Positions 3,001 through 9,000 of a stretch of 64,000 nucleotides of DNA are shown here, one piece after another. The stretch comes from Alphaproteobacteria bacterium (lineage in GTDB: Bacteria > Pseudomonadota > Gammaproteobacteria > JAGOUN01). The DNA lies in the NCBI GenBank assembly GCA_021151585.1, contig JAGKWX010000002.1, forward strand, positions 75,747 to 139,746, read 5' to 3'. Made by a program: the position numbers. The first letter of the stretch is position 1. The number at the start of each line of letters is the position of its first letter.

Positions 3001-6000
3001 CAACGTGGCTTGACTAAGTTAAAAATATTTAGAGATGCATAAAATGAAATTTTTTTTATTGTTCGTATTGAGTGTGTTTTTCTTGCCGGCGTACAGCACT
3101 CACTATTCCTGCGACATATTTAACAACGGACAAAAAATCACAACATTACCCGGTGCTGTACCAGATAATAATCGAATTGCTAGTGCCGCAAACCATAATA
3201 TAACTGATCCCAACATCACACTCGCCTATACTTTATGCCAACAAGCGGGGTTTCGACTCATCAACACGCAAGTGGCTATCCCTGGTATGCGCAGCAATTC
3301 TAACGTGACTAAAATCCAGCAAACACCTGATCCAGCTTGCTCACTAAAGTGTTCACCTATCAGTTAAACGATACTAGCACGCCATCGAATACTGACAGAC
3401 TCATCTATTGATTGCCAGCAACGACTATAGTTATGCCTCTAGTTTATTGGGTAAAAAAGCACAGTAACGATGCAGAACTCAGGAAGATTATAGTTATGCA
3501 ATGTAATCCTTCAGGGTGATTTCAACGCGGTAATTCGTATAATCACCAACAACACTATTCAATGCTAAATTCGGTTGATACTGGATTGGATGACCACCAC
3601 CATAACCTACGGCATAAATCATACGCGCATCCATATCATGATCCCAAAAATAATTACTTACAACTTGCGCTTGCTTCTCAGTAAGGAAAAGGTCTCGTTC
3701 AGATTGCCTTGGCGCAGCGGCATAAGCGGCAATACTGATCTTTACTTTATTCATTGGCTGAAGTAATTTCGCGACCTGCTGTAAAATATTGTCACCTGAA
3801 CTAGAGATTTTCACAGAATAATCAACAAATAACTTCTGTGACGGAATAATAATTGTCACATTATCACCCAAGCGCATGACACTGACGCCGCTTGCGCCGA
3901 GTGACTGCAATACTGTGGGGTGTTGTGAAAATATATAGCCTAAGACACCACCTATGGCAGCCCCCACCCCTGCACTAACAGGAACACTAGCGCCAGATAC
4001 GCCACCAACAACCGCACCAGTGACAGCGCCCGCGCCAGCACCTTTGGCTGTCGATGAATCTACACCATTACCTTCTGTCGAGCAGGCTGATAATAAAAAT
4101 AAACATGAGAACACTATACTATTTAACTTAAACACATCTATCTCCACGATAATCTCAAAGATGCTAATCCTCGCCGGCATGAAACATACCATTGTTAATT
4201 CTCATCCCCCTGCGCTTGTTTTTCAACCATCGCTGTTAAGCGCTCTGTAATATCCACTAACTCTGGAACCGATAAACGTACCATAATCGCTGGCGGATAC
4301 TGAGTCGCTGCTTCCATGCCGTTAGCCACTTCCAAAGCAATATTATGTGCCTGATTAGCTTTTCGCCCCATCAAACGCTCAATTAATTCAATTTTTTCTC
4401 TGACCTGCGACTTCACCAGCAAAGACTTACAAAACTGATCGTATCGTTCACCAGAGAAGTAGGAGCGCACATTATCTGTTACTTTGACTCTGACAAATAT
4501 ATTTAAGCTCTCAGAAATTTCATCAACCTCTGGGATACTAACACTCGCCTCATCCATGCCTGGTGACGTGGTAGCAGACTCAGCACGAGGAGGATCGAAG
4601 CCATCACAACATGCAAAAAAAGCCGCCACGCTACGCTCAACACCATTTTTTTTCTTCTGCGCTTCAGAAGAAAATACCTTAACCAGCGCTGAAATCGTAT
4701 CAGAAGATTCGATAGGCTGATCAAAAATAACTGGCTTATCTAATAGCTGTGTAAATTTAATTAATTGCTTTTCTTGCCTCACCAATTCCTTAAGATTTGG
4801 CTTATCAACTTTTAAGAAATGATTTAGACGCATTCTGTCAGCAATTTTTGGATTGGCGAAAAATGCTCGCGCACGCACAATTTCAGATTTAAAAAACACA
4901 TGCATCTCACCAACATCTTGATCTTTCAAATCTAAAAGATGAATACGAGCACGCTTTTCAGCTGAAGCACTTTTGGTATCTAAATAATTATTCATCATAC
5001 TTTGTGAATCCGTCTGAAAATGATCCACTTTAGTTACATAAATTTCACCAGCAGTTTTATTAAAGAAATCCCACGTTTCCGTTGGATCTTCTAACTTCAT
5101 ACAAATCTTGATATTAGTATTTGCACCAATTGACGCCGCTTCTTCTTTTGATGCTTTTTGAAACGCAGGCAAATCTTGCCCAGCAAAAATTGTCGAAAAT
5201 CCAAGTGATCGCGCTTGCGCAGGTACAACCGCAAAACCTTTTACAGCATAATAGCCATACTCATCGAGAATACACATATACGGAGTTGGAGCATTAGTCG
5301 GTTTTCTCTGAATAACATCTTGAAAACGACCCTCGACACTATCTCCCAAACCCGAGGCCATCATTGCACGCAAGGTGGCAATAATAATTTTACCTAAATT
5401 TGATAATTCATCTGGAGATTTTTCTAGTGCAGGCAATAGCACAACAAGAATACGTCGATTCAAAACTACGTCAGCCATGTCTACTTCAGGAACATTGGTA
5501 CGAATAATATGACTATAGGTATCCGCCAATGAACCAAATGTTCTAGTCAGCTGCATAGTGATAAAGCCATGTTGCTCTAGCACTTGAGATACTTGTTTGC
5601 CTTTATTTTTCGGTGTAAATCCTGGCAAATTTAGTAGGTAATTATAAATCGGATCCATAACTAATGGCGGGGCATCTGCTATAGAAAAAGGCTCTTGACC
5701 ATCGACCGGGAATTGCCTATCTAAACAAATTTGCTCAAGCTTAGGTAAATGAAAATAATTACGAATTGAATTCGCATCTAGCAATAATTTTCCTTGGTCA
5801 CGAACATATACCAATAATTTCATCAACGCTTCAACGAAGTTAATTGCTCGGTTTTTCCACATATCTCCATCTGGAGAACCTGATTGACTTTCCCCCATTA
5901 AGCTAACAACCAACTGGATTAACATACTGGATGAACCACTAGAAAATGGATTCATTGTGTTTGATAACTTGGTTTCTTGAGCGCCAATAATATCACGCGC

Positions 6001-9000
6001 ACCCGTCATAAAATTAATTAGCAAAATATCATCTTCGCGCCCCATACTGCGACACATAGAGAAAATCTTTGCATACAGGGAATTATCACCTTTACCATCG
6101 ACATAAATAAAACCACTACCTTGCATTAACGCATTAAAAGCAAACGACACTAAAGCTTCTGTCTTACCGCTACCCGTTGATCCAAAAATCAACATATGTG
6201 TCCGCATATCATCGTTATTAAACCAAAGTTCATCGTTATTTGATTTGGAATTACCAAGAAAACAAATACCACGCGCCACATTAGGCTGCATGCCACCACC
6301 AGGTTTCATATCATTATAATCTAATGCTTTTGAACGAATTGGCATACGAAAAGGCAACGATGCACGTTTAGCCACATACAAACAGTAACAAGACAGAATA
6401 AAGCCGAGCAACAAGACGATGTCAGCAATAGCAGGAAATACACCAGCAAGCGTTGCAAGCACAATAAAAACAATAGAACTTTGTGAGGGCTGTTTTAAAA
6501 AATCCCTAATTTTCGTACCAAGCGTACGCGTATCCCGCAGGAGTTGCGATGCATCTTGTTCTTGATTTTTTTCTAACCCTCTAATCATTATCTCATCTCA
6601 TCTTCGTCGCGGTGGTAAGTAATTTCGGTCAATGCAGACTCTAACGCTAACGTGGCTGTTTCTACCATGGGCAACACTGATTTCCGACCTAATTCTTTTT
6701 CAGCCAACCAATGCGCAAAGACACCCGCCGATTCACAAACCGGTGTTCGACGACCAATACAATTCAAGACAAACCATGCTTTTCTATCGACCGGTTTCAA
6801 CCACAAAAAATCTGAACTACTCAATACGCCATCATAACGCGCCAATTCCAACATCGAGGCCATGACAGTCAGTTCATACGCATGAGACTCAATCACCATG
6901 TTCACGCTTTTTTTGTTAAGATATTTGCGACATAGTGCCAATGGATGTTCGCAATGAGTCGTATTTTTCACCGGATCAAAATTATTCGATAATTCTGCCA
7001 ACACGGCGTAAGCGAGATCGCGATCACCATGTGCTTTTGCAGCGAACACCCCAAATAAAGCCTGCAAATAAGGAGGCAGCGCTTCACAACCACGCCACAA
7101 TCTACCTAGCTGCAGAGTAAATAAGGCCATTGCCTTACCTTTATCTAATCTTGCGACTATACGTTTATGCCTTAATAATTCATCTTCGAGCGGCATAACC
7201 TCTTCTTCAATAATGAGTTGCTTTTGTTTAGCAAAATCCATTGGTGTCAATGACATCGCCCAGGGGCCTTTACGAATATCGACATTAATTAAATCAAGCG
7301 TTGTGACCGGTTTAATTTGCGGCCAGATATCTTGTTGTGCTGTTGCCAAATCTTTCATATTGTAAGAACGACGATAGCCAGTCGCAGAAGCACTTTTATA
7401 AATCATTATCGCTAACAACAACAAGATAACTATGCAAGGAATAGCAATATACTTACCCACACTAGATGCGATATATTGTGCCTGTACAAATGTCACGCTA
7501 ACAGGTGCAACAGTTGAAGCATAACGGTTAACTAAGTCTAGCTTAGAAGTAAATAAGCCTATAACGGACATTTCTAGGACTTTAAACTTCAAAAAGACCA
7601 GCATAATGTACGCATGCAAGAAATACCAAATAATGCCGCCAACAATGCACAGCGTCAACATGATCCATAAAGGACCGAGTGAATTATCCGGCTGTTGGCC
7701 GCCGCCGCCTCCTGGTGCCATAGAAACATCACTCTATTTATTCATCGTGGATTTATGGTGCCATAAATGAGGGGGAATTGACAATTATCTTTATTCCAAA
7801 CTCAGCGTTCCAAGGGGGCGACCATCGGATCGCCCGCTATTAACCTGAATTCAGACCTGATAACCTGCTATATTCGCTGAATTCAGTCAATTTAACATTA
7901 AATTATTGCCCGCCAGCCTGCTTTTGTCGCATTTCAGCCAACGTTTTACAATCAATACATAATGTCGCTGTAGGGCGCGCCTCTAAGCGTCGAATCCCAA
8001 TATCCACGCCACATTCTTCGCAATAACCATATTCGCCATCACGTAATCGTTTCAACGCCTCGTCAATATCAGCAACTAAATCTGCTTCACGATCTCGCGC
8101 TTTCAGTTCTAGGTTAAATTCTTCTTCTTGTGTCGCACGGTCATTCAAATCAGCAAAATGTTTAGGCTCATCCTTAAGGTGCGAGACAGCTGTGTCAATT
8201 TTAGACGATAAAGTGGCGCGCCATACGTGCAACAATTCTTTAAAATAGGCTTGCTGAGTCTCACTCATATAATCTTCTTCTGTAGAAATAATGTAAGGTT
8301 TCAAACCGAGCGACTCCGCATGCCCAACACTAGTTCGCGACTTGGTTGGCGCTGAAGCGAACGCATGCTCGGCCACAGCGTGAGCTGATGACTCTGCATC
8401 CGGTATCACTGAGCTTGTTTTTTCTGACGCTGTACCCTGAAACTCGCTAGACACAACAGAAATTGACTTAAGATTATCAGCATCTTGGTTAACAAAAGGT
8501 TTGGTTAATACTGTTTTTTTAGAAGACTTGCTACTGACTTTCTCTGGCGCGACTGTCGCACGAGATTGATCAGCCGTAGTAATCGACTTAGAGCTTGTTT
8601 TTGCTGAATTTTTAACCATATTTTCTGGCCCGGCGTTAGATACCGTCGATTGCACTAGCACTCTAGCTTTAGGAGACGCTGCCACAGCAGGTTTCGCCGT
8701 TTTTTTATCGCCTGCTTTTGTTATGACTTTGCTCGTTTTAACAACTGCTTTTGCTGTATTCGGCATAATGTATTCCTAAGGTAAAAAAGTTGGCACCCTC
8801 TATAGCAGACTTTTGCTATAAAAACAAATTCTATACGCATATATTTTATGCTAATATGATAAAAATAGCGATTTAGAGGAAGGAAACATGTTTAAAATAC
8901 GCGCTCAAGTCTTATGTTCATTGTTATTTTTGACCTCATCATTAGCTCTGGCCTCATCAGAGGAAGGCTTTTATCTCGGTGTTAACGCAATTGATGGTCA

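Follow-up and report, generated by a model that had tools for sequence, protein, structure and literature searches.

We analysed a 64-kb stretch of contig JAGKWX010000002.1 (hereafter the window) from an uncultured Legionella-like bacterium, in which dotM, dotL and dotK (icmP, icmO and icmN) stand as genuine genes of the Dot/Icm system for type IVB secretion (T4BSS). By comparing this locus with those of its relatives, we found that it truly departs from them at just one point, a break between dotK and dotI, and we propose, with a probability of roughly 0.8, that the genes belong to a dispersed but functional Dot/Icm system that was split at an apparent operon boundary, and that they are neither a relic nor a plasmid module. 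A dispersed system was one of the two readings offered by the original prediction, which had been made from the sequence of the window, and the comparison with relatives supports it.

Identity of the three genes

The three open reading frames (ORFs) are co-oriented and tightly packed, with the dotM stop codon overlapping the dotL start by 1 nt. Pfam and NCBIfam profiles, together with matches to Legionella structures, confirm dotM and dotL, as well as the lipA, tyrP-like and dksA flanks, as the original prediction had named them. DotM passes a curated equivalog model (NCBIfam DotM_IcmP_IVB NF033890, 409 bits against a cut-off of 230), carries the C-terminal cytoplasmic domain of the family (Pfam DotM_C PF23127, 6.9e-52, 176.6 bits against 27) and matches L. 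pneumophila DotM of the coupling-complex structure 6SZ9 (6sz9_B) with 298 bits. Arginines 196, 197 and 217 of L. pneumophila DotM, which we take to be the patch that binds Glu-rich-peptide signals, align to D, K and A in the window protein (residues ~190-215); if this role holds true, the recognition of effector signals may differ in this clade.

Residues 1-791 of DotL align to residues 1-770 of L. pneumophila DotL (6sz9_A; 968 bits, E value 2.7e-290), and the protein combines this end-to-end alignment with the N-terminal transmembrane region and the conserved Walker A (GSTGSGKT) and Walker B (ILDEYG) motifs of a T4BSS coupling protein; a TraG-D_C domain is also present. The long C-terminal tail is retained, as had been claimed: residues 689-791 match the C-terminal crystal constructs 7bwk, 5xnb, 5x90 and 5x1e with E values of 2e-6 to 3e-5, and the extension is predicted to be the docking tail for IcmS-IcmW, DotN and LvgA. 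The nearest database relatives of this DotL are metagenomic proteins (82-89% identical), and it is 62% identical to the IcmO of Aquicella lusitana.

The gene directly after dotL encodes an OmpA-domain lipoprotein with the lipobox LLSAC, as expected of DotK. Its best match among solved structures is L. pneumophila DotK (6x62_DK, 1.2e-15), and the dotK position is filled in every related cluster by a positional orthologue (60-78% identical), which precedes dotI where the cluster is contiguous. Translation probably starts in fact at the GTG at 4135, which follows GGAGA and would give the signal peptide MFKLNSIVFSCLFLLSAC with a lipobox ending LLSAC; the orthologue in the nearest relative (locus L007) begins at the residue aligned to residue 20 of the window protein, matching the GTG start.

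The junction between dotK and dotI

In A. lusitana (L006), the order of genes is lolB, hemA-prfA-prmC-dksA-dotM-dotL-dotK, dotI paralogues, dotH, dotG and onwards to dotO. A contiguous cluster that starts right after dksA is likewise found in close relatives (L002, L003, L004/L005 and L008), whose DotL is 86-87% identical to that of the window, and in the more distant outgroups L015 and L016. The dksA|dotM adjacency is kept in A. lusitana and nine related metagenomic loci, and since Aquicella, the close relatives and L015/L016 share it, it represents the usual left boundary of the cluster, inherited from the ancestor. The locus had been presented as an oddity when set against the 17-gene run of Legionella and Coxiella; of this, one break between dotK and dotI is real, whereas the dksA-dotM end is normal in Aquicella and the whole clade, where icmTSRQ do not adjoin it.

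In the window, dotK is followed not by dotI or dotJ/dotI but by a convergent 110-aa ORF of no assigned function, a tyrP-like permease gene and lipA. Contiguous relatives have a spacer of 71-203 nt at this position and then dotI. The 126-nt spacer of the window has no homology by blastn to the downstream region of any relative, and blastn and tblastn found in it no remnant of dotI or of the conserved element that lies next to dotI (see below). A 7-mer shared in the spacer (TTTACCC), picked out by eye, was dropped as being within chance expectation. In relatives of the clade, a tblastn comparison did not find dotJ/icmM at the dotK-dotI position.

The window extends just 3.5 kb past dotK, the side on which dotI-dotH-dotG-dotF-dotE-dotP-dotN-dotO would be expected, and the 56 kb without T4BSS genes lie on the upstream side of dotM, where relatives carry none either. 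The isolation of the locus is thus shown over these 3.5 kb only, a limit that the original prediction did not mention, and it is weaker than stated there: the claim that no other T4BSS genes lie nearby stands for the 64 kb, which downstream of dotK means 3.5 kb. Within the window, Pfam and NCBIfam profile scans of ORFs of at least 100 aa and of small unassigned ORFs detected no further Dot/Icm family, the small unassigned ORFs and a 2003-aa ORF scanned for Icm/Dot families gave none, and tblastn with the DotI, DotH, DotG, DotF, DotE, DotP, DotN and DotO of relatives gave no match; dotC, dotD, dotH, dotG, dotF, dotO, dotB, dotA, dotI and icmS/icmW were not found anywhere in the 64 kb. A T2SSE ATPase gene (28568-29551) considered as dotB was rejected, as it encodes PilT (423 bits against a cut-off of 319), which is the only secretion-type ATPase of the window outside the dot locus.

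The cut between dotK and dotI is also seen in loci related to that of the window. L007 (DotL 89% and DotM 88% identical) has unrelated convergent genes after dotK, and in L009 and L010, which are two independent assemblies, dotK is followed by a protein kinase gene and a ribonucleotide reductase gene, with at least 9.3 kb free of T4BSS genes; L001 has the same junction sequence as L009. In the L001/L009 lineage, the gene convergent on dotK at the breakpoint is of a typical effector type: in L009 (13094-15199) its 701-aa product is a Ser/Thr protein kinase of eukaryotic-like type, and L001 (14095-15426) has a homologous, shorter ORF of 443 aa.

A metagenome scan with DotI yielded four short loci. 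dotI is the first T4BSS gene in L012, where it follows gloB and a PEBP-like gene, and in L013, where it follows a HemN-like and an SRPBCC gene; both are short loci ending within dotH. L017 reads map-rpsB-tsf-pyrH-frr-uppS-dotI-H-G-F-E-P-N-dotO-rsmB on a 94-kb contig and shares its JGI sample (3300019776), though not its contig, with L009, and in L018 and L019 an ABC permease gene, an ABC ATPase gene and a 90-aa ORF precede dotI...dotO. The second half of the cluster is intact in both split relatives that read through to dotO (L017 and L018).

We considered L018 as the window's own second half but rejected it, since identity between the ABC-transporter genes of the two reaches only 86-89% and the ATPase gene of the window is followed by ychF and not by dotI. 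In the window, parC and the genes for the ABC permease and the ABC ATPase (20607-21917, 22170-23909 and 29784-32030, minus strand) are 82-89% identical to the genes at 596-8563 of L018, directly upstream of dotI. Given the neighbours of dotI in L018 and the ychF of the window, a 17-kb ychF-to-dotK segment seems to separate the ATPase gene from dotI in the reconstructed ancestor, and L018 seems to have lost this segment from upstream of dotI.

Both parts of the cluster carry conserved upstream elements (Table 1). The dotM element, TATGGCACCAT(A/G)A, occurs as one copy per locus, ~35-45 nt before the start codon, in 10/10 clade sequences, and TATGGCACCAT is invariant (L001 9823-9833, L002 9956-9966, L003 9924-9934, L004 8832-8842, L007 1898-1908, L008 4962-4972 and L009 8826-8836). 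It is single-copy in the window, where the site at 7754-7765 can also be written TATGGCACCATAAT, and it is absent from the outgroups and from the dotI-side loci. We infer that its function may be promoter-like. Another way to see the element is as a mini-ORF, ATG GCA CCA TAA/TGA, which repeats codons 1-3 of dotM.

The ~55 nt directly upstream of dotI are conserved as well, with a palindrome TACCCTA...TAGGGTA in contiguous clusters and the variant actggaaacttt..aagcttatggttttattaagg in L013, L017 and L018. Sites of this dotI-proximal element are L003 14172-14245, L004 12938-13010, L008 9216-9286, L012 ~3200-3265, L017 ~9318-9379 and L018 ~9297-9358. The element, which is likely a promoter or operator of the dotI-dotO unit, stays with dotI in the split loci and homology ends just upstream of it; thus, the cuts fall between the dotK stop codon and the element.

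In L. pneumophila, icmPO (dotML) is transcribed as a unit of its own, apart from the genes after it (PMC4969725; bioRxiv 10.1101/2024.09.25.615009). The dotK-dotI spacer looks like an operon boundary, as the dotI element moves with dotI while dotM keeps its own, which would explain why the split was tolerated: a break in this spacer should leave both units expressible. We propose that the ancestor of the clade had the order dksA | dotM-dotL-dotK - dotI-dotH-dotG-dotF-dotE-dotP-dotN-dotO, that a chromosomal rearrangement in the window lineage cut the cluster inside the dotK-dotI spacer, and that the dotI-dotO block was relocated at least 3.5 kb away, probably to another part of the chromosome. 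Going by the Legionella structures, DotL would be the hexameric coupling ATPase and DotM its membrane partner, the DotL tail would dock DotN, IcmS/IcmW and LvgA-type adaptors for the recruitment of effectors, and DotK would anchor the outer-membrane cap to peptidoglycan; DotL, DotM and DotK would then assemble in trans with the proteins that the relocated genes encode.

Table 1 Features of the dotM-dotL-dotK locus and its boundaries in the window
Feature	Position	Strand	Basis
Three co-oriented, tightly packed ORFs dotM, dotL, dotK	3494-7721	minus	ORF calling
dotM/icmP, type IV coupling complex subunit in the inner membrane, 377 aa	6588..7721	minus	NF033890, DotM_C
dotL/icmO, VirD4-type coupling ATPase, 797 aa	4195..6588	minus	End-to-end match to 6sz9_A
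dotK/icmN-like outer-membrane lipoprotein, glycine zipper and OmpA peptidoglycan-binding domain, 232 aa as ORF	3494..4192	minus	Pfam OmpA 2e-11, Gly-zipper
Breakpoint region: 126-nt spacer from the dotK stop to the stop of the convergent 110-aa ORF	3368..3493	.	Sequence read
dksA-dotM intergenic region, presumed promoter region of the dotM-dotL-dotK unit	7722..7902	minus	Conserved adjacency, upstream alignment
Conserved element TATGGCACCATA with inverted repeat TATGG-N2-CCATA, which overlaps a -10-like hexamer, CATAAT	7754..7765	minus	~35 nt upstream of the dotM ATG

Number of splits and alternative explanations

For the history of the break, we built a bootstrapped neighbour-joining tree of concatenated DotM and DotL proteins with contiguous outgroups. 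The pair formed by the window and L007 is sister to the contiguous clade, and the pair of L001 and L009 lies outside, all of these nodes having 100% bootstrap support; this topology, with its contiguous outgroups, implies at least two independent splits. L012, which is split and has a dotI element of the contiguous type, hints at a third.

Several results weigh against our proposal and deserve to be considered together. The DotK-like protein scores 81 bits with the IcmN_DotK_IVB equivalog, under the cut-off of 250, and slightly more (95 bits) with a YiaD-like lipoprotein model, which is also under its own cut-off; of the predicted DotK identity, the OmpA lipoprotein and the best structural match hold, whereas the family profile does not. 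Consensus scans returned 13 promoter and 5 terminator sites, where shuffled sequence would be expected to give 15.4 and 5.4. That dotI-dotO, dotABCD and icmS/W are present elsewhere in the genome of the window is something we infer from the relatives alone. In favour of their presence, one 82,192-bp NCBI+Logan contig, with the source signature of the window's own proteins, carries both DotH (P0138) and DotO (P0403, full length), and P0403 forms a pair with L018 in a DotO tree (81% bootstrap), paralleling the pair of the window and L007 in the DotM and DotL tree; it is plausible, on such circumstantial grounds, that this contig is the second half of the window genome or of a very near relative. 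Finally, the DotO tree contains the same three groups but leaves their order open (42% versus 42% bootstrap), which makes the number of independent splits uncertain, and one older split followed by turnover of the flanks is a possible alternative to several splits. As the flanks differ at nearly every locus, these genomes appear to form a rearrangement-prone group.

We can offer only tentatively, and with the odds leaning against it, the idea that breaks have arisen at the dotK|dotI junction repeatedly and independently within this uncultured clade of Legionellales, on at least two occasions and possibly on three or more. If it were true, the coupling complex plus DotK on one side and the core machine on the other would be autonomous expression modules. 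A more extreme version would have the core machine lost here and DotL-DotM-DotK selected for another role.

Among the explanations that compete with a dispersed, functional system, one is that the rest of Dot/Icm was lost and that dotM-dotL-dotK are decaying or serve another secretion or conjugation system. The lack of any other T4BSS gene in 64 kb would fit this, as would the partial T4BSS sets of some small Coxiellaceae metagenome-assembled genomes (MAGs) (Hugoson et al. 2022, PMC8896642), yet we consider it unlikely because the three genes are under strong purifying selection. In pairwise comparisons of the window with relatives, in which synonymous divergence (dS) is saturated, the ratio of non-synonymous to synonymous divergence (dN/dS) is 0.03-0.06 for dotM, about 0.05 and within the same range for dotL, and 0.06-0.17 for dotK. 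These ratios are indistinguishable between split and contiguous lineages, and against the nearest relative the values of 0.03-0.06 show no relaxation relative to contiguous lineages. None of the three ORFs has a frameshift and the catalytic motifs are intact, which together with the low dN/dS argues against decay since the split; moreover, L017 and L018 keep an intact dotI-dotO block and the window has no alternative type IV secretion system (T4SS). With ORFs and Walker motifs intact and dN/dS low, the relic coupling module that the original prediction had entertained finds no support.

The cluster might also not be dispersed at all, if lipA, the tyrP-like gene and small ORFs formed a small insertion after dotK and the remaining genes followed shortly past the window's left edge. 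Only 3.5 kb are seen downstream of dotK and ~78 kb of the 141.8-kb contig are outside the window, which leaves room for such an arrangement, but its odds are low: L009 has its long stretch without T4BSS genes after dotK and a matching dotI block on another contig, lipA is a housekeeping gene and would be atypical as insertion cargo, and no DotH representative in the list searched is recorded on a 141,777-bp contig, although this last point is weak as cluster members are hidden. A contig that is chimeric at the junction downstream of dotK is very improbable, even if the source is probably a MAG and an insertion sequence (IS) transposase occurs in the window, for the same break is found in independent assemblies of relatives (L009/L010, L018/L019 and L011/L012), there is no repeat or IS at the junction, and G+C content is even across the dotM-dotL-dotK region and the downstream junction of dotK. 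Coupling genes of an IncI-type conjugative plasmid or integrative conjugative element (TrbA/TrbC) are ruled out by scores and synteny, since the best NCBIfam model for the 797-aa ATPase is indeed IncI TrbC_conju (NF041447) but reaches 369 bits against a cut-off of 800, compared with a full-length DotL match that includes the tail, DotM passes its curated model, the chromosomal housekeeping context is shared by the clade and Aquicella, and neither tra, relaxase or integrase genes nor an alternative T4SS were found among the window ORFs scanned, so that profile searches gave no sign of the TrbA/TrbC pattern with neighbouring tra genes that would have spoken against the original assignment.

Surroundings of the locus and comparison with known systems

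To the right of dotM lie dksA, an outer-membrane protein (OMP) beta-barrel gene, prmC, prfA, hemA, lolB and suhB. The dksA ORF (7903-8766, minus strand) encodes 287 aa, of which the DksA domains occupy only residues ~167-279; L007, whose DksA has 263 aa and is 55% identical overall, shares the N-terminal extension of ~150 aa, and the DksA of other relatives measures 142-197 aa. Elsewhere in the window, five large ORFs match no Pfam or NCBIfam family, at 24114-27776, 42012-43508, 43520-45148 and 45275-51286 (minus strand) and 61717-63333 (plus strand), encoding 1220, 498, 542, 2003 and 538 aa, respectively, and are candidates for secreted effectors of a Dot/Icm-bearing intracellular bacterium. 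G+C content is raised at 42-46 kb (0.47-0.48 against ~0.40). A DDE_Tnp_1_4 IS transposase is split over two ORFs (52137-53084 and 53107-53808, minus strand), by a frameshift or as a pseudogene, and adjoins rsmG (gidB) and parA.

The significance of the locus is modest, and the one feature of mild note is that the same breakpoint appears to recur. A cluster regarded as largely collinear can be broken at the dotK-dotI spacer with its genes retained, and the repetition of this cut within one environmental clade would mark the spacer as a functional operon boundary. The locus also cautions against scoring the completeness of a T4BSS in MAGs from a single contig.

Compared with A. lusitana and the contiguous relatives, the window has an identical upstream synteny (lolB, hemA, prfA, prmC and dksA), the same dotM-dotL-dotK order and spacing and the same glycine-zipper/OmpA DotK, but at this locus has neither dotI nor any of the genes that come after it. 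Compared with Dot/Icm region II of L. pneumophila (icmTSRQ-icmPO-icmN-icmMLKEGCDJB), DotL and DotM are full-length orthologues and an OmpA lipoprotein likewise follows dotL, whereas dksA takes the place of icmTSRQ upstream and the cluster is cut after dotK. DotK itself differs from that of L. pneumophila in its glycine-zipper N-terminal part and in scoring under the IcmN equivalog cut-off. With the L. pneumophila coupling complex DotL-DotM-DotN-IcmSW-LvgA (6SZ9/7OVB) the window shares a DotL that keeps both the ATPase motifs and the docking tail. TrbA and TrbC of the IncI1 plasmids R64/ColIb-P9 belong to one protein superfamily with DotM and DotL, from which the window proteins are set apart by a score far under the cut-off, by a chromosomal housekeeping context without transfer genes and by the Legionella-type tail. 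Set against the T4BSS of the Legionellales, which has been described as 'largely collinear' (Hugoson et al. 2022, PMC8896642), the window is neither a new kind of system nor evidence of a new mechanism but a lineage-level exception that stems from ordinary rearrangement.

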